A stretch of DNA of 60,810 nt, the filler included. It is 3 parts of 3 records of this genome, joined end to end, with 100 filler letters (N's around TTAATTAATTAA, not from the genome) between each part and the next. Parts side by side here need not be neighbours in the genome. Positions count along the whole stretch, not along the records: positions 26,563 to 52,376 come from SRR22947727_1397; 2 more parts are not named here. One strand, written 5' to 3'. Numbering within the stretch: position 1 is the stretch's first letter; the number at the start of each line of letters is the position of its first letter. A program made the position numbers and the translations under genes. The notes under the pieces are model-generated. The model was not told the DNA's origin. It made no database searches and saw only the letters and a program-made list of their open reading frames with translations. Of the stretch, positions 11,581-52,509 are shown in pieces.

Positions 11581-11773
11581 GCGGCTTATTCCGATAATCA
11601 GCGAAAATACGCCCGGCAGGAATCGAACCTGCACTTTCGGCTCCGGAAACCGATGTAATATCCATTTTACTACGGGCGCGTTTTTTACGGGCGGTAAACT
11701 GTTCCTTTACACCCTGATTCGCAAGCAATATCGTCCTGCGCTGTCGATTTTTGCGACAGAGAACTTTTGCCCG

Positions 11774-26462: not shown

Positions 26463-26562
26463 NNNNNNNNNNNNNNNNNNNNNNNNNNNNNNNNNNNNNN
26501 NNNNNNTTAATTAATTAANNNNNNNNNNNNNNNNNNNNNNNNNNNNNNNNNNNNNNNNNNNN
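26463..26562. other. Artificial contig spacer
   Basis: N44-TTAATTAATTAA-N44, stop codons in all six frames. Confidence 0.99.
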
Positions 26563-28593
26563 AGCTTTCATTTGTAAATGTTGCATGATATGAGAATGTA
26601 TTAAAGCTTGAACTTGAGCATTCATTTGCACCGGAGGTGTGTTTAACAGAGACATATGAATTGAAATATGTGCATCATGATTTTGTTGTGGGAATGCTTG
26701 AGCTTGTTGTCCTAATAGTAATTGATTATTTTCAAAGCCAGCTTCCAAAGGAAGAGGATCTGTAGGGGGTGGAGGTGTTAATATTTGCTCTACATTATCT
26801 ACGCCTATTGCAGCGTACATTCTTTTGTAAGCTTCATATGTACCGTTAGGCCCATGCACTTGCGGATTGGATTGCACCAATTGCATCATTTCTTGTGCCA
26901 TAGCAATTCTTTGTGATTGACTGAATATGTCAGGATTGGATATTGGGAATATATCTACCTTTTCATCAAAATCAGAAAGTTTTATAGTTGTTTCATTATT
27001 TGCTACAGAATATGGATATTCTTGTGGCAAGTATTCTTGAAACACTTTTGACAATATTTTAAATTCTTTCTTTTGTGAATTGTGCAAACGTTTATGAATA
27101 GCAGACAATACTTTTGTAGATCTTTCTAATAATGCAAGTGTTGTACCTACCGGAGCGTTTGGATTGCCTTGACCTGTATTTATTTCAGCAATAGATGCAA
27201 ACTTTTGTCCTGAATTAACCAACATGTTTAATAACTGAAGCAAGGTTCCACTAGGCTCTTTAAATGGTAGTGGCTGTATTGAATCTCTTAACGATCCACC
27301 TGGAGCATCTACATCTCTAAATTCTCCTGGTTGTATTGGAGTGTCTTCGTCTCTAATTCTAATGCCTCTGGTCTTAAAACCAGCAGGTAGATTAGCTAAA
27401 GTACCAGCATCAATTAATTGCCTCATGATAGATGTTGAAGCTTTTGATAAACCACCAATCATATGAGTTAATCCAAATCCATAAAACCCTAAACCTGGCA
27501 AAAACTTAAAGTGAACAAAATATTCTATTTTATTTTTAAGTGCGTCATCTTCTTTATAGTTTCTTCTAACAGAAAGAACGTCATTTGAATTAGTATCTAT
27601 AGTAACGATATAAGGCAGTTTAACACCAGTCAACTGACCTTCTTCGTCCGTATCTTCAAAACCTTCTAACTCTAAATTGCAATGGACTTCGTATAAAAGA
27701 GAAACTTCGCCATCATCATATGAAGGCTCCATGCCAGAAAGTTTATCTATTTCTTCTTTAACACCACTATACTCGTCAGCACTATCACCACTACTTATAT
27801 CTATCTTTTTATAAAATCCTATGGATTGCAGTTTTCTAACTTCATTTTCAGCAATTTTAATAACGTTTGTAATTCTAGGACAAGTTTCTAAATCAGTTGT
27901 GTAGTAAGGAACTATTAGATCTTCAGGTGCAATAAACTTTGATACGGCCCTTCCCAAGCTTTCATCATAATAAACTTTTTTAAAAGATGATCCTGCTAAA
28001 GGCAGATAAAAAAGCATTTGGTCTAACTCTTCATCAAACTCTTCCATTACATGAGTAATTTGATAATTCATAAATTCTTTAACTCTTTGTGCTTGTTCTT
28101 CTACCAGAGAATCATAGGCACCTATGACTTGAGTTTTAACTGGACCGCCAGACGGCAACAGTTCTTTATAAGCTTGAGCCTGAAAAGTTGTTACGGCTTC
28201 ACCTAACAAAGGATGAATAACTCCACTTGCGCCCTCAAAAGGTTCAGACCTTTCGGCATCAAAGCGCATCCCAAGGTATTCTAAACCGTCTTTATATGTT
28301 TTCTCCCAGTCTTCCCTAGAAGCTTTGTCTTTTTCTATTCCTGCAATTAATTCATTTGCAATATTTCTTAATTCTTGAGGATCTAAAACTTCAGCTAAAT
28401 TGCTATCAAAATCTGTATCTACTTCCTCGGCAATTGATGCTCCAAGAATGGCGCTACCATCTTCTTGCATTTCAAAACCTTCAGCTCCTCTTTCTTTAAT
28501 TGCTTCTATAACAATTTGCATGTCTTCTTGACCAAGCGGCACTTGATTTTGTTCATTTAATACCGTTGGGTTTATATCTTTTTCTATTGCCAT
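26563..28593 (-). CDS. Phage portal protein (3'-truncated)
   Basis: PFEGASGVIHPLLGEA, LPLAGSSFKKVYYD, GFYGFGLTHMIGGL, QLIDAGTLANLPAGFK motifs; follows TerL. Confidence 0.9.
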
Positions 28594-35238: not shown

Positions 35239-35278
35239 TTTGTGACCTCCTAAAAGTCGTTTTGTTAAATGAGTACCT

Positions 35279-35307
35279 ATGATCTCATATTGGATACATC
35301 TTGTCTA
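35279..35307 (-). promoter_or_regulatory. Promoter with TGTATCCA box in spacer
   Basis: TAGACA-AGATGTATCCAATATGA(17)-GATCAT. Confidence 0.65.
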
Positions 35308-35509
35308 CTATTATTTCATCTTTTTTTCACTCCACATCTTTGGTGTGTTAGACCTGCCTTGCCAAGCTGGCGACCAACCTGCCGTCCCTGGCTGGCAAAC
35401 TTGTCCTTGTGTTAGTGTAGTCTGCTGGTTAGCAGGCCCGAACCCGAGATGAATACTCAGCCCCGATCCCGACCTGCTATTAGGAATACCAGCAGATACA
35501 AAACTAAAG

Positions 35510-36483: not shown

Positions 36484-36512
36484 ATAATAACCATCTGGAT
36501 ACATCTTGTCAA
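36484..36512 (-). promoter_or_regulatory. Strong sigma70 promoter with TGTATCCA box
   Basis: TTGACA-AGATGTATCCAGATGGT(17)-TATTAT. Confidence 0.85.
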
Positions 36513-36648
36513 CTCTTTATTTGTATTTATTCGAGGGCCTGGAGCTGCTGGCCAACCCAGACTTGTGTTACTCTTGTGTTTCTTCCCCCCACCCCAGAGC
36601 TAAAAACCCCCATCCCAGCTCCCGATTTGTTTTCCCCGACTTAAATAC

Positions 36649-37020: not shown

Positions 37021-37049
37021 AATTTATATAAGTGGATACACCTTGTCAA
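37021..37049 (-). promoter_or_regulatory. Sigma70 promoter with TGTATCCA box
   Basis: TTGACA-AGGTGTATCCACTTATA(17)-TAAATT. Confidence 0.8.
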
Positions 37050-37176
37050 CTACTTTCGTAATCTTTTTTAGCAAGCTGCCTGGAACTCCTGCAGACCTGG
37101 TTGTGTGATTGTGTTTTCTCCTTGTGTTGTTTACCCCACACTCAAATCTGTTTCCCGATTCCCGAATTCCCGACAT

Positions 37177-37677: not shown

Positions 37678-37719
37678 TTTTATATACCTCCTAATAGTAT
37701 GTTGTTTAAATGAACCCTA

Positions 37720-37750
37720 AGTATAACACGATATGTATACAAATTGTAAA
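37720..37750 (-). promoter_or_regulatory. Extended -10 promoter with palindromic TGTATACA box
   Basis: TTTACA-19 nt-TATACT, with TGn before the -10; TGTATACA at 37734-37741. Confidence 0.65.
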
Positions 37751-38158
37751 CTATTTAAGTAAGCATTTTTCTTCCACAAACGGCGTCCCATCTCAGATCC
37801 TAAAGACGCCAGATCTCCTGAAGTCCTTCTGGTGTGTTATTATGTGTTATGCCCTACGCATTAAAACACTCCCCCGACCCCGAAAAGAAAACCCCGACCC
37901 GACCCGAATGATTCAGCAACCTTTCAAAACTATCCAGCGTCCCTCCTGGGAGATCTGGATGGGCTTATTGTGTTGTGTTATGTGTAGCTACGCACACTAA
38001 CCGTAAGTTCTATTAGGCAATCCCGAACCCGACCCGATTCGCTTGCTTTTTTATAGGAGAGTGACCGAGAGACAAAGGAAATGCGATAAACTTTCAAATT
38101 CCCTGCATATACGTAAATATAACTATAAAAATATATTACACTTTGTACGCTAAAGTTC

Positions 38159-38187
38159 TTGCATGTTATGGATACATTTGGTAATCT
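38159..38187 (+). promoter_or_regulatory. Rightward sigma70 promoter with TGGATACA box
   Basis: TTGCAT-GTTATGGATACATTTGG(17)-TAATCT. Confidence 0.7.
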
Positions 38188-38366
38188 GTCTATAGTTTAG
38201 TATTTCGTAGAAGTATTTACCTGACGAGGTGTAGCGATTGCTCAAACTAGTGTTGACGGACACTTAAAAGACCTAGAATAGTAAAGTAGCCGTTGAAGGA
38301 GTTGGTAGTAATCTTCGGACTAAAAAACTACCACTTTATTAACCCAAATCTTATAGGAGAGTAATT

Positions 38367-38786
38367 ATGGGAACTAGAAGCAATATCGCTTACAAAAAAT
38401 CAACAGGGGAGATAGTCAGTATGTATTGTCATTATGACGGCTACCCACAATATAACGGAGTAATGCTTAACGAACATTACAACACCAGAGAGAAAGCCAG
38501 AGGCCTCGTAGACAACGGCTATCAATCAGCACTTAAAGAAACCGTAGAGGAATCTAATCTGGACAGGGTGCATGAAGAACCCCCCAAGACTTACCGTTCA
38601 TTTCATGCTTTTATTATGGACATTAACTTTGATATTGAATGGGTATACCTATTCAAAGATGATGCTTGGTATTATGCTGAGACTTCATTAATCAGTTTGC
38701 CTAGTGGTAGATATGATGTTGAAGTTGACGCTTTCTCACTACTATCTGATCTGCATTACACAATAAACGCAGGAGATCAATCATGA
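38367..38786 (+). CDS. Conserved phage hypothetical protein (MxTRSxI...YCHYDGYP type)
   Basis: 139 aa; TAGGAGAG RBS. Confidence 0.8.
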   Translation: MGTRSNIAYKKSTGEIVSMYCHYDGYPQYNGVMLNEHYNTREKARGLVDNGYQSALKETVEESNLDRVHEEPPKTYRSFHAFIMDINFDIEWVYLFKDDAWYYAETSLISLPSGRYDVEVDAFSLLSDLHYTINAGDQS

Positions 38787-38995
38787 GTAAGAAATTTAAA
38801 TGTACTGTAGTTGAAACATACACCCAATATATAGAGATACCTGACGAAGTTGATATAGCTGATGTTGATTTAAGCGAGGTCTATGACTTTTCAATGCCAG
38901 AAGATAGCGACGAAACTGTAACACCAATAAGAAACGATAGTGTCGTTGACCTGGTTTATAAAGACGGAGAATTTGAGGAGTACAAAGATGAGTAA
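38783..38995 (+). CDS. Small acidic phage protein
   Basis: 70 aa; overlapping start/stop, AGGAG RBS. Confidence 0.7.
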   Translation: MSKKFKCTVVETYTQYIEIPDEVDIADVDLSEVYDFSMPEDSDETVTPIRNDSVVDLVYKDGEFEEYKDE

Positions 38996-39194
38996 ATACA
39001 AAGCAAAAAGATATATACTTGAATCTATATGGGAAGAACAATGGGTGGAGTGCGAAGCTGATTCTATAGAAGAAGCAGAGACAAACTTTGAGAATGGAGA
39101 CTGCGATATTGAATCTTCTAAAATGGGAGAGTTAGAGGATAGTGGCCTTCAAATTATTGTTGAAGATGTAGAACTGGAGTCCGACAATGAATAA
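38988..39194 (+). CDS. Small acidic phage protein
   Basis: MSKYKAK...VECEADSIEEA; GAGGAG RBS. Confidence 0.7.
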   Translation: MSKYKAKRYILESIWEEQWVECEADSIEEAETNFENGDCDIESSKMGELEDSGLQIIVEDVELESDNE

Positions 39195-39351
39195 ATTTAA
39201 ATTTGCCCAGGACGCTGTATTCTTTATTACCGTTGGTTTTGTATGGGTAGTATTAATTTTATCAATTGCTTTATTCTTTTTGCCTTATTATTTATTGCGA
39301 GAAGTTTGGAATTGTTACGAAACTTGGCAAATAAACAAGGAGAAGAGCTAA
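39187..39351 (+). CDS. 54-aa single-TM membrane microprotein (not in ORF track)
   Basis: MNKFKFAQDAVFFITVGFVWVVLILSIALFFLPYYLL...; GGAG RBS; stop overlaps next start (TAATG). Confidence 0.7.
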   Translation: MNKFKFAQDAVFFITVGFVWVVLILSIALFFLPYYLLREVWNCYETWQINKEKS

Positions 39352-39554
39352 TGGCAATAACAACAGAAGAAATGAAAGAAAGGATAGTTGATAACGAAAT
39401 CAACTACATAAGGGAAATGGTAAATAGAGATAGATATGATGATCTATTTGAGTTTGTTTATCAGTATTGTTTTAACGATTTTAAATCAATGAATAATGAA
39501 GAAATTAAAGAACAGTATGAGTGGAGATTTTTTGATGAGGAGCAAACCCAATGA
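39351..39554 (+). CDS. Small phage hypothetical protein
   Basis: MAITTEEMK..., AGGAG RBS. Confidence 0.7.
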   Translation: MAITTEEMKERIVDNEINYIREMVNRDRYDDLFEFVYQYCFNDFKSMNNEEIKEQYEWRFFDEEQTQ

Positions 39555-39841
39555 CAGTAATATTTGAAAAATCTTTTCCAAAAGAACCCAATGGAATAAA
39601 AAGACAATTTACCAGTTGTTGTGGTGCTAGTGACAAAGGTTTAGACGATTGCGTTGGTTGTAGAAGTTGTTACCAAGAAATATACGAATATTTTGGTGTT
39701 GGCAACGAAGAAACTTTTAAAGAGTACATCAACGATTCTAAGATTATGAAAAGATTTGAAGAATTCTTAGCTGATACGAACGAAACTTACGAAGAGTGGC
39801 ACGTTAACCTAATGAAAAACCATTTTAAGGAGCAAGGCTAA
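39551..39841 (+). CDS. Cys-rich phage hypothetical protein
   Basis: SCCGA...CVGCRSCY. Confidence 0.7.
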   Translation: MTVIFEKSFPKEPNGIKRQFTSCCGASDKGLDDCVGCRSCYQEIYEYFGVGNEETFKEYINDSKIMKRFEEFLADTNETYEEWHVNLMKNHFKEQG

Positions 39842-40089
39842 TGACACAATTTAAAGACGCAGTTGAAAAACAAAAAGGCCTTATAGCTTACCTTAAATGG
39901 TCAAAGCAAATTAAGCATATTCATTACAATAATGGGATTGAAGAAGTCACGTACAGAGACGGCAGTAAAGAAATGACCGATCTGAGAACAGAAGAAGTAA
40001 CTTACATCCCAAGAGTAAAAAGAAGAAAAAATTTAATTGACTCCAATCCCTTTGTAAGGTTTTTGAGAAAAATTAAATTCTACCAATAA
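39841..40089 (+). CDS. Phage hypothetical protein
   Basis: 82 aa; AAGGAG RBS. Confidence 0.7.
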   Translation: MTQFKDAVEKQKGLIAYLKWSKQIKHIHYNNGIEEVTYRDGSKEMTDLRTEEVTYIPRVKRRKNLIDSNPFVRFLRKIKFYQ

Positions 40090-40090
40090 G

Positions 40091-40119
40091 TTGATAAATA
40101 CGACATATACGGATATTAT
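40091..40119 (+). promoter_or_regulatory. Sigma70 promoter not followed by a + strand ORF
   Basis: TTGATA-17 nt-TATTAT. Confidence 0.7.
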
Positions 40120-40124
40120 GCCTA

Positions 40125-40217
40125 GGTGGTACTTGTTTGATTTGATTTCAAATCTTCTCTACTCTCCTAAAAGTATGTGTCTTACGAGTGCCACAACCTC
40201 ATGACTTTTTTATTTTG
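40125..40217 (+). ncRNA. Candidate small RNA with anti-Shine-Dalgarno loop
   Basis: Own promoter; 11-bp stem 40126-40136/40184-40194 with two G-U pairs; loop TACTCTCCTAAAAGTATGT; T-rich 3' tail. Confidence 0.55.
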
Positions 40218-40261
40218 GATAGCCGTCTTTTTGTATGTTCTTATCTATGTACTAGACAGAC

Positions 40262-40900
40262 CTAATCAGAAATAACCCCATTACTTAAATCTTTAGGGCT
40301 TGCCGTCTGCAAGTCCTCGCTCTCTAATTCCTCTAAAGTATCTGCTTCATCTACCTGATCTATTGAACCATCAGGATCTCCTGGATCCAAAAGACCGTCA
40401 GTTGTATTGGCTAGGGCTATATTCCCCATCAGCTGCTCCAGGCGTTTCTCTACTTCTTCCCGACTCATTTGATCTATCTTCCCGAACATAACTTCTTTCC
40501 TATCAACAACCAGGCCCCCGACTTTAAGTAAACTGTTTTGAGCTGAGATGGCTGCGTTGAAAGATCCGGCCTCCAAAGCCTTGTCCCGAATGTCGTACAG
40601 ATCTTGAACTGCCCGATCATAATTAAGCTCATACTTCTTCTTAGCTTCATTCATCAGATAGTTATATTCCTTGCGAATGATAGGATGATTCATCAGTTTA
40701 TTGGCAGACTGCCTAGCATCTTTGTACCCAGCTTTGTGAGCGCACTCCACAAGAGAAAGCCGAGGATTATTAACGGCTTGCCATATAAAGTTTCGTTGTC
40801 TGCGATTAAGGGAGTTGTCTAGGTTAGCGTATTCAATGGGAGCTTCTTCTTCTGGAGCTAAGATGGGTTCATATTCAAGTTTGTTTTTTCTATATCCCAT
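40262..40900 (-). CDS. terS: Terminase small subunit
   Basis: LNRRQRNF...ECAHKAGYKDARQSANKLMNHPII HTH pattern; AAISAQNSLLKVGGL helix. Confidence 0.8.
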   Translation of the reverse strand: MGYRKNKLEYEPILAPEEEAPIEYANLDNSLNRRQRNFIWQAVNNPRLSLVECAHKAGYKDARQSANKLMNHPIIRKEYNYLMNEAKKKYELNYDRAVQDLYDIRDKALEAGSFNAAISAQNSLLKVGGLVVDRKEVMFGKIDQMSREEVEKRLEQLMGNIALANTTDGLLDPGDPDGSIDQVDEADTLEELESEDLQTASPKDLSNGVISD

Positions 40901-41137
40901 ATGTATTTAGCAGTTTAGAGTCAAAGTAGTTAAATATACCTACCCCCACATTACCCTAAAGTGTATGGAGAGGATACCTTAATACAATTTATGCCGTCAA
41001 GGTATTTGTTATATTTTTATACTGTTTTCCCTTTGTTCTTGTGACAAAAATGAAAAAAATAAAATAATCATGAAACCTGCTTAGTTAAAGGGTTTTTTAC
41101 CGTCATATATCCATGACAATAATAAGACAATAATGAT

Positions 41138-41446
41138 TTAGTCATCATCTGGCCCCAGTTTTGGAGTTAATGTCTCAAATAAATGATAGTTATGAAATGT
41201 ACTTTTGTTCTTATCCACCTGGACATATTGATCAAGGATCTCGTTCACAAAATGATACACTTCTTCATCATTATTCGTTATCTTTTGTATTTTCCAAATA
41301 CAGTAACTTAAAGTAGTTAAAACAACCGTAAACTCATCTTCATTTCTTAAAGTATAACTATTGAATAGCTTACTTAACCTTTCCACCATTTCTTTTAAAG
41401 TGGGTTTAGGCATTTTACTTTGTATTGGAACTACTTTTAGCGTCAT
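41138..41446 (-). CDS. Phage hypothetical protein
   Basis: 102-aa ORF. Confidence 0.65.
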   Translation of the reverse strand: MTLKVVPIQSKMPKPTLKEMVERLSKLFNSYTLRNEDEFTVVLTTLSYCIWKIQKITNNDEEVYHFVNEILDQYVQVDKNKSTFHNYHLFETLTPKLGPDDD

Positions 41447-41453
41447 AAATAAA

Positions 41454-41672
41454 CTATACCTTAGTTTTACTTCTTACTTCCATAAATTCATCCAGTATTT
41501 TTTTAGTCTTACCGTACATCTCATGAATAATCATAGAGTAACTATCAGCTTGTATTGGCGTATGATTGTCTGCCGCGTTAGATTCATGTTCAATGCAATA
41601 GTCTAAACGGTCATTCATTTCTTTAAGTGACTTCATTACTTCTATTATGTACTTATCTTCTTCTTTACTCAT
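41454..41672 (-). CDS. Phage hypothetical protein
   Basis: 72 aa; AGGAGG RBS. Confidence 0.7.
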   Translation of the reverse strand: MSKEEDKYIIEVMKSLKEMNDRLDYCIEHESNAADNHTPIQADSYSMIIHEMYGKTKKILDEFMEVRSKTKV

Positions 41673-41697
41673 ATGTAACCTCCTAAATTACTAAGTG

Positions 41698-41726
41698 TAG
41701 ACATTATAAACTTTTTTGTTTAAAAT
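41698..41726 (+). promoter_or_regulatory. Promoter for the exonuclease operon
   Basis: TAGACA-17 nt-TAAAAT. Confidence 0.6.
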
Positions 41727-41768
41727 ACAATTCACATACATTATTAATTAATACTTTAGGAGAGTACT

Positions 41769-41960
41769 ATGAATATAACAAAAGAACTGGATGCTATTAT
41801 TGAGACATCCACCAACAACTTGCATGATCGTATAGAACGAGAGCTTACAAAAGATAAACTAAACTATGCTCTGTTTAACATTAAAACGAGCATATCTGAG
41901 CTAACACAATGCGTCAAAGAACTTACTGATGCAGTTGATAGATTAGAGGAGGCATCATGA
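41769..41960 (+). CDS. Small coiled-coil phage protein
   Basis: 63 aa; TTAGGAGAG RBS. Confidence 0.75.
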   Translation: MNITKELDAIIETSTNNLHDRIERELTKDKLNYALFNIKTSISELTQCVKELTDAVDRLEEAS

Positions 41961-42832
41961 ACGAACTACCAGAAATATTAGAGAACCAAGAACATGTAGT
42001 CTTAGGAGACGCAATTTACTTTCCAGATATGGAGCATAATTTTTATCATGAAGCTCCAGGCATATCATCATCAAACATTAGACGATTTGGCCAGAGTCAA
42101 CTTCATGCATTTGAAGAAGATAACGAGACAACACCAGCCATGAAGCTTGGGACCGCAGCTCATTCACTTATTGTTGAAGGAGAAGAGGCATTTGTTAATG
42201 ATGTAGTTTGCCTAAGTGGATCTCCATACACTAACGCCAATAAAGAGCTAAAGAAAGAGTATGAAGATAGAGGGCTAACCGTTATCTCAGCTAAAGACAA
42301 AGAAACGCTTTACAACATGAAAGAAGCTTTGATACCGGAAGGAGTCAAACATCTTTCAGCAGTACGGGGCGAATACCCAGAAGTATTTAACTCTCCGTTT
42401 GAAAGAGCGATCTTCTGGTGGGAAAAGGATCTATTACTGAAAGTTAAATCTGATGTGCTTAGATACCCTTTAGATACTTCTAGCGATCCAAAATCAATTA
42501 TCCTGGTGGATTATAAGACTACTGCCGACTGTTCTGTTAGAGGCTTTACATCTTCCATTAGAAAGTACCAATACGAACTACAGGCCGCTTGGTACAAACG
42601 TGGATACGAAAAGGCTGGGTTTAACGTGGTTGATTTTATGTTTGTAGCACAAGAAAAGAAAAAACCATTTGCAAGTAAGATCTTCAAGATGAAGCATGAG
42701 GACATGACATCTGGTTGGTTAAAGCTTGAGCATTTACTGGGCGAATACAACGCAGTATTAAACGGTAAGGAAGCCACAACATACAACTCACCTAATATAG
42801 TTAATGTAGATCTGAAAGGATGGGGAGAATAA
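41957..42832 (+). CDS. RecE/exonuclease VIII-like PD-(D/E)XK nuclease (DUF3799 type)
   Basis: YH...GISSS, GTAAH, FE, KVKSD, VDYKTT, YELQAAWY motifs. Confidence 0.88.
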   Translation: MNELPEILENQEHVVLGDAIYFPDMEHNFYHEAPGISSSNIRRFGQSQLHAFEEDNETTPAMKLGTAAHSLIVEGEEAFVNDVVCLSGSPYTNANKELKKEYEDRGLTVISAKDKETLYNMKEALIPEGVKHLSAVRGEYPEVFNSPFERAIFWWEKDLLLKVKSDVLRYPLDTSSDPKSIILVDYKTTADCSVRGFTSSIRKYQYELQAAWYKRGYEKAGFNVVDFMFVAQEKKKPFASKIFKMKHEDMTSGWLKLEHLLGEYNAVLNGKEATTYNSPNIVNVDLKGWGE

Positions 42833-52376: not shown

Positions 52377-52476
52377 NNNNNNNNNNNNNNNNNNNNNNNN
52401 NNNNNNNNNNNNNNNNNNNNTTAATTAATTAANNNNNNNNNNNNNNNNNNNNNNNNNNNNNNNNNNNNNNNNNNNN
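52377..52476. other. Artificial contig spacer
   Basis: N44-TTAATTAATTAA-N44. Confidence 0.99.
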
Positions 52477-52509
52477 TGATTCGTCGAACGTACCCTGTTG
52501 GATCGTAAG
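52477..52509. repeat. Palindromic repeat copy inside the cysS reading frame at contig end
   Basis: Minus strand CTTACGATCCAACAGGGTACGTTCGACGAATCA matches copies at 21463 and 55531. Confidence 0.8.

Follow-up and report, generated by a model that had tools for sequence, protein, structure and literature searches.

Comparative sequence evidence indicates that the stretch flagged by a first-pass annotation near position 40,100 of the window (the whole stretch of DNA that was analysed, 60,810 nt) is a genuine and conserved RNA element that belongs to a widespread group of marine phages. In the window it has the features of the structured front end of a two-step reading frame for a 24-residue, predicted membrane peptide. 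The reading that we prefer, with a probability of roughly 0.5, is that 40091 to ~40320 constitutes one conserved + strand phage transcription unit acting as a dual-function RNA. Its parts are not equally secure: that this is a real transcription unit with a coding micropeptide is highly probable, and coupling of a short upstream reading frame (uORF) to micropeptide translation is probable, while pairing in trans with phage start regions is a tentative proposal with the odds somewhat against it. The function with the best support is a likely cis role in micropeptide translation, and a trans role of the anti-Shine–Dalgarno (anti-SD) type in the window's lineage is possible. The first-pass annotation had described a promoter, a closing stem, an inner hairpin, a loop and four loop matches, all of which are present, together with the absence of a + strand ORF, which is wrong. 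Its interpretation as a phage anti-SD sRNA accordingly stands in part: the + strand RNA, the covarying stem, the conserved loop and the enrichment at start regions are retained, but the RNA is not non-coding, since it leads into a uORF and a micropeptide gene.

Runs of N with a TTAATTAATTAA spacer at 26464-26563 and 52377-52477 show that the window consists of three concatenated contigs, of which the middle one (26564-52376, 35-39% G+C) is a phage fragment with a portal ORF truncated at the contig end. This contig encodes portal, large terminase, DNA methyltransferase, primase/helicase, a Sak4-like annealing protein, SSB and a PD-(D/E)XK exonuclease, and its large terminase is 57-61% identical to those of HTVC023P-type pelagiphages. 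The flanking contigs (51-58% G+C) are not physically linked to the phage and are therefore uninformative on its host; a host assignment from these flanks and genome G001 was dropped for that reason. The first of them, a bacterial contig, carries a tRNA-Arg (CCG) gene on the minus strand (11608-11679). The element sits between an 82-aa gene, the last of the + operon 38367-40089, and a convergent small-terminase-like gene on the minus strand (40262-40900), the last 14 nt of which overlap the micropeptide ORF. The small-terminase-like protein matches PHROG 51 (E 5.9e-8) and, below the cut-off, Pfam Terminase_2 (E 9.3e-5), and is 29-35% identical to annotated pelagiphage small terminases. It has 404 relatives in IMG/VR, the best 80 of which were fetched for comparison, and a divergent query matched a further 266, from which 77 loci were added; loci of the window's kind are referred to here as type 1. 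Near-identical DNA occurs in 16 marine/seawater runs from six studies, one of which runs may be the window's own source. A DNA search of a phage collection matched no cultured relative, and HTVC027P and HTVC023P show no synteny with the window around the small terminase.

A sigma-70-type promoter is found on the + strand where it had been proposed (40091-40119), with TTGATA (40091-40096) and TATTAT (40114-40119) separated by 17 nt; it has 10 of 12 matches and is the best among eight promoter-like sites in 39000-41500. The arrangement TTGnnn-17-TAnnnT is kept in all 55 distinct type 1 relatives, in which the 17-nt spacer and the distance to the loop are constant and the hexamers vary (five different -35 and seven different -10 sequences). 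Production of a + strand RNA from its own promoter is supported by this conservation, and the transcript is predicted from the position of the -10 box to start at ~40125-40127, at or just before the 5' arm of the closing stem. At the other end, a candidate hairpin followed by a pyrimidine-rich tail (40295-40317, + strand) might be a weak terminator. Its 9-bp stem contains G-U pairs and is retained with G-U pairs in the window's sub-clade only; the 83-nt stretch folds at -13.4 kcal/mol (z -1.58), and a consensus terminator scan of 39000-41500 called 0 terminators, this hairpin included. If the hairpin is used, the + transcript would be ~200 nt long. When 39000-41800 was compared with the RNA-labelled runs X17-X19 and the DNA run X2, as contigs only, the RNA contigs left 40034-40315 uncovered, which weighs neither for nor against transcription. 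The possibility that the closing stem is an intrinsic terminator of the upstream + operon was rejected, given that no terminator is called in 39000-41500, that the stem encloses 47 nt, that the U-run starts 11 nt past the stem and not directly after it, and that the conserved promoter lies between the stop codon of the operon and the stem.

The closing stem pairs 40126-40136 with 40184-40194 on the + strand over 11 bp, including the two G-U pairs previously noted (T40130-G40190 and T40134-G40186). It encloses a small inner hairpin, GATTTG / CAAATC (40139-40154), and the loop TACTCTCCTAAAAGTATGT (40160-40178). The single-stranded, CU-rich and anti-SD-like stretch extends over 40155-40178, with the core TACTCTCCTAAAAGTATG at 40160-40177; it occurs once in the window and is almost invariant in the alignment of type 1 relatives, where a compensatory variant of the inner hairpin, GTTTTG / CAAAAC, is also seen (by eye, no statistics). 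The leader 40126-40200 alone folds with a z of -4.81, and 0 of 200 shuffles fold as well; the wider 135-nt stretch of the first-pass annotation gives a z of -1.10. Covariation of the stem, which had been suggested as a check, is evident in the type 1 relatives. Of its 14 pairs, nine change on both sides in a compensatory manner, a number reached by 0 of 500 shuffles, and 96.5% of the cells are paired compared with 30-51% in slid controls. Loci L067/L068 and L077/L078 have wholly different arm sequences and retain the pairing. Many of the stem pairs are U-G or G-U, which would be C-A mismatches on the other strand, and thus the + strand is favoured; covariation with G-U pairs fits the + strand only, as the annotation had argued from the two pairs of the window.

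A covariance model built on the + strand from 35 distinct sequences finds 69 of the 80 loci, and the window once, at 69-109 bits on the window-sense strand, against at most 29 bits on the opposite strand. A degenerate loop-pattern scan of viral contigs gave 118 stretches; among the 80 of these that were searched with the model, the already-known contigs only were recovered and no further copies of the element. Apparent second copies in six loci were discarded, being the start region of the 132-aa gene homologue. A search of 38000-42500 against Rfam 15 at E up to 10 gives four weak matches (15-22 bits, against gathering thresholds of 50-55), none of them inside 40091-40320, and four type 2 or type 3 loci (L204, L220, L233 and L069; these types are described below) give 0 Rfam matches at E up to 1.

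A function of the minus strand, either as a ribosome binding site (RBS) with a mini-ORF or as a promoter/operator copy of the motif upstream of early operons, is very improbable. This idea draws on the minus-strand sequence TAGGAGAGTA, a motif that also stands at two genuine gene starts, and on a longer motif shared upstream of three operon-first genes. Against it, the 9-codon TTG ORF that the annotation had raised as a caveat is not conserved: 15 of 57 distinct relatives have no start codon in range, and in the others the mini-ORF is 4-26 codons long and differs in frame. The G-U pairs and the conserved promoter also favour the + strand. The regions upstream of the first genes (38340-38366, 41730-41768 and 37678-37720) share ATTAAC..., then ACTTTTAGGAGAGTA, resembling a promoter of the T3/T7 class. 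A phage-type promoter was dropped, since the polymerase family PF00940 was not found in three relatives of 89-100% completeness, a weak point in that the control matched nowhere; no single-subunit RNA polymerase was seen among the large ORFs of the window. The TACT...AGTA ends of the motif are 6, 7 or 8 nt apart at different sites, and the idea of a protein operator was dropped on this account.

Downstream of the promoter, the + strand carries two reading frames. A 9-codon uORF (ATG...TGA, 40175-40204) starts in the loop, continues across the 3' arm and has its stop codon on the following ATG (ATGA), which opens a 24-codon ORF for a hydrophobic micropeptide (MTFLFWIAVFLYVLIYVLDRPNQK, 40201-40275). 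Among 57 distinct relatives, 54 have the uORF stop at the main ATG, with the two overlapping or abutting in 53 (as ATGA, TAATG or TGATG) and a 3-nt gap between them in one. This register survives indels and unrelated stem sequences, and the uORF peptide itself is not conserved. A 1-nt deletion breaks the register in three of the 57 (L022, L024 and L041), which counts against our preferred reading. The 24-codon ORF has a coding signature, with 1326, 500 and 2897 pairwise differences at codon positions 1, 2 and 3, respectively, and 15, 5 and 22 variable columns of 24; 24 distinct DNA sequences encode 10 distinct peptides, which follow the pattern M-x-x-L-...-Y-I-L-...-L-(D/G)-R-P. By these measures the ORF evolves like a protein and is a small ORF under protein-level purifying selection. 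Neither the AUG at 40175 nor that at 40201 is preceded by an SD-like GGAG in the window. The micropeptide has no match in Pfam, type I toxin families included, at E up to 10, or in PHROGs, and the ESM Atlas gives unnamed clusters only, at a score of 0.76.

The region 40126-40275 is conserved beside the small-terminase-like gene in relatives, and the element itself has a wider distribution. Among 157 loci assigned by pattern, some of their contigs having been fetched twice, 66 are of type 1, 53 of type 2 and 16 of type 3; the element is absent from a group of loci including L260-L280. In types 2 and 3, the element is at the same place, the end of a + operon facing the small-terminase-like operon, and has a promoter close to consensus. 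Its closing stem is unrelated in sequence and shows one compensatory pair in type 2 and, in type 3, a change from G-U to G-C; the loop bears the similar CU-rich motif ACUUCUC...CUCC, a U-run comes directly after the stem, and no ORF lies behind. Of 38 distinct rows in these types, 33 have instead a similar hydrophobic ORF of 24-29 residues inside the + operon, upstream of the element (by ~285-297 nt, or 130 nt) and with an ordinary SD. The filter accounts for at least one of the other five, as the ORF is visible in the locus. In L211, L215, L217, L220-L239 and L251-L272, this ORF has the pattern M-x-V-D-T-x-F-Y-I-T-I... or M-S-N-L-F-I-F...; next comes a conserved ~65-aa gene whose end overlaps the -35 box of the element. 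Since promoter, stem and CU-rich loop are carried in types 2 and 3 without an ORF behind them, an independent role of the RNA is probable. By its layout, the element in these types looks like a stand-alone sRNA, and the comparison of loci indicates that the RNA element exists without a downstream ORF, the lineage of the window having the micropeptide gene behind the element instead.

This distribution bears on two further explanations. Read strictly, the first-pass proposal is a non-coding trans-acting sRNA that only blocks phage (perhaps host) RBSs, with the ORFs untranslated. The stand-alone appearance of types 2 and 3, the conserved CU-rich loop and the enrichment at start regions in type 1 agree with it, but without translation it is hard to account for the coding signature of the longer ORF or for the retained uORF register, and the U-run of the window begins 11 nt past the stem, so that we regard the strict version as quite improbable. 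The second, which is improbable as well, is a module like type I toxin–antitoxin systems, in which the 24-residue peptide would be a membrane toxin, coupled to the uORF in the manner of hok/mok and restrained by an antisense RNA arising by read-through from the small-terminase-like gene or from an unrecognised small RNA. A small hydrophobic peptide, a structured 5' leader and uORF coupling fit such a module, as do the 14-nt overlap of the convergent gene with the ORF and the fact that no minus-strand terminator is called. It is opposed by the absence of a minus-strand promoter-like site in 40100-40300, by the lack of a Pfam (E up to 10) or PHROG match for the peptide and by the situation in types 2 and 3, where the micropeptide ORF is SD-led within an operon and its start region pairs weakly with the loop of the neighbouring RNA (-4 to -16 kcal/mol). 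The idea of a trans-acting antitoxin in types 2 and 3 was dropped in view of the same energies.

The four RBSs proposed as partners of the loop are complementary to it as described. On the + strand, the start region of the 63-aa/exonuclease operon (41751-41766) is complementary over 16 nt with one bulge, there being 0 mismatches once one A is dropped, and that of the 139-aa gene, the first of the + operon (38348-38363), has a perfect complementarity of 10 nt (10/10 at 38354-38363). On the minus strand, the start region of the 132-aa gene (37688-37702) is complementary in 14 of 15 nt, the uORF AUG included, and has homologous sites in relatives, and that of the 66-aa gene (35247-35257) is complementary in 11 of 11 nt. 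The 16-mer loop pattern has two matches against 0.32 expected, and two or more are given by 4 of 100 shuffles. When duplex energies are calculated for 33 start regions of the window, three of them with start positions a few bases off, the top-3 mean of the real loop is attained by 0.7% of 300 shuffled loops with CTCCT retained, and its top-5 mean by 0.3% of them. For a type 1 relative that is nearly complete, the top-3 value is reached by 1 of 200 shuffled loops and the top-5 value by 0 of 200, the best partners being homologues of the 132-aa, 139-aa, methyltransferase, Sak4-like and 63-aa genes. The perfect complementary run between the loop and the start region of the 139-aa gene is 8-15 nt in type 1 relatives. 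Complementarity thus exceeds shuffled controls in the window and the type 1 relative, but not in types 2 and 3, where extended complementarity is absent (perfect runs of 4-10 nt, with a mean of 6.2 against a background of 5.9, attained by 159 of 5000 permutations); when loops were shuffled for a complete type 2 genome, 185-189 of the 200 equalled or surpassed the pairing of the real one.

Two further features of the phage contig were noted in passing. The divergent 132-aa and 139-aa genes are separated by a 690-nt gap (37700-38366), in which motifs of the CCCGA(A/C)CCCGA type are repeated at 37870-37910 and 38020-38040 (35432-35472 holds similar ones), and another TAGGAGAGT, which no ORF follows, stands at 38054-38062. 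This gap could be an origin of replication, could serve in regulation or could hold a further small RNA. The leftward early region contains three copies (35291-35326, 36496-36531 and 37033-37068), 72-78% alike, of a direct repeat of 36 nt (TGGATACA(T/C)CTTGTC...).

In a rival account, the hairpin and the CU-rich stretch serve the micropeptide gene alone, by protection of the 5' end, by SD-independent or standby loading, or by binding a protein, for instance ribosomal protein S1 or a translational regulator of the phage. An [A/T]-rich (U-rich) segment and TAGGAG(A/G) are common to many phage start regions, so that the antisense of one matches others, and the start-region matches would then be a by-product of this consensus. 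The conserved uORF and micropeptide architecture is in keeping with a leader of this kind. So is the outcome of the check for loop-target covariation proposed by the first-pass annotation: within type 1 no cognate-specific covariation is found (2625 of 5000 permutations reach it). Likewise, by plain duplex energy over the whole phage contig, start-region windows are not outliers relative to coding-region matches, and two coding-region windows rank above every one of them, at -26.5 and -25.9 kcal/mol. On the other hand, promoter, stem and CU-rich loop persist in types 2 and 3 with no ORF behind them, the complementarity exceeds that of shuffles in which the CTCCT core is kept, and at the 132-aa gene it extends over the uORF AUG. 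A leader acting purely in cis is possible but, on balance, less likely than not.

In the dual-function reading, which we prefer, a host-type promoter would yield a transcript starting at the base of the covarying 11-bp stem, which encloses the small hairpin and the CU-rich stretch running straight into the uORF AUG. For the cis role, ribosomes would load on the A-rich loop without an SD; their passage along the uORF would open the stem, and they would then re-initiate at the SD-less micropeptide AUG. As ribosomes would reach this AUG via the uORF, the leader may set the amount of a membrane-active peptide. For the trans role, the CU-rich stretch would also base-pair with other RNAs; the loop of this lineage has 10-16 nt of complementarity to start regions of the UAGGAGAGUA type at the first genes of early operons. 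Such pairing would cover both the SD of the early gene and the AUG of the uORF, and hence each partner might block translation of the other. An anti-SD-like stretch in the place where an SD would be expected makes an odd start region, and this speaks against the preferred reading. A more far-reaching version, which is speculative and unlikely, is that an RNA family in abundant marine phages mimics the anti-SD tail of the ribosome and titrates strongly SD-led messages, mostly of phage early genes. In the lineage of the window, this RNA would have captured the membrane micropeptide gene of the phage, and it would act as a timer, in which pairing with abundant early mRNAs hides the uORF AUG and the decay of these mRNAs frees it. 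If true, this would provide an RNA-only link from the shut-off of early genes to the production of a membrane-active peptide.

The literature and Rfam searches characterise the element as a previously undescribed phage RNA element. Full-text searches on HTVC023P, pelagiphage small RNA and phage-encoded sRNAs turned up neither such an element nor any regulatory RNA of phages of this kind, and words for sRNA and non-coding RNA occur 0 times in PMC9599517 and PMC12753301. A well-supported RNA element with a micropeptide gene offers a concrete entry point, open to experiment, into how uncultured marine phages exert post-transcriptional control. Its arrangement is unusual in that an anti-SD-like stretch takes the SD position of a uORF coupled to a micropeptide.

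Dual-function sRNAs such as Staphylococcus aureus RNAIII (delta-haemolysin), Escherichia coli SgrS (SgrT) and Bacillus subtilis SR1 (SR1P) resemble what is predicted for the window, a short transcript of ~200 nt with its own promoter, in which a conserved single-stranded, putative pairing stretch is combined with a small ORF, and delta-haemolysin is a short hydrophobic peptide like that of the window. The RNA of the window differs from them in that it is phage-encoded, that its putative pairing stretch is at the SD position of the uORF, and that its predicted peptide would be reached via the uORF stop/start overlap. Coupling of a small hydrophobic peptide to an overlapping upstream frame, as proposed here, is also a feature of the hok/mok/sok loci, which likewise have a structured mRNA 5' end; however, the window peptide is half the size of Hok and has no sequence-family match, no antisense RNA gene is found at the locus, and relatives encode the peptide inside an ordinary operon. 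Host-encoded sRNA families with a C/U-rich seed that pairs with the SD (RsaE/RoxS) share an unpaired pyrimidine-rich CUCC motif in a hairpin loop, whereas the phage element has no Rfam match. In P1 and P7, the c4 RNA, which is processed from the operon that it controls and has an immunity function in these temperate phages, blocks the RBS of icd, a small ORF coupled to ant. It resembles the present case in that a phage RNA exposes loops with complementarity to RBSs of the phage, and in that a small ORF coupled in translation takes part. A review mentions c4 as a regulatory antisense RNA of phage P1 (PMC12197685). The RNA of the window has a separate promoter and a different architecture, with no sequence similarity to c4. 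Judged by analogy of mechanism, the dual-function sRNAs, hok/mok-type coupling and P1 c4 appear to be the closest analogues of this phage element.
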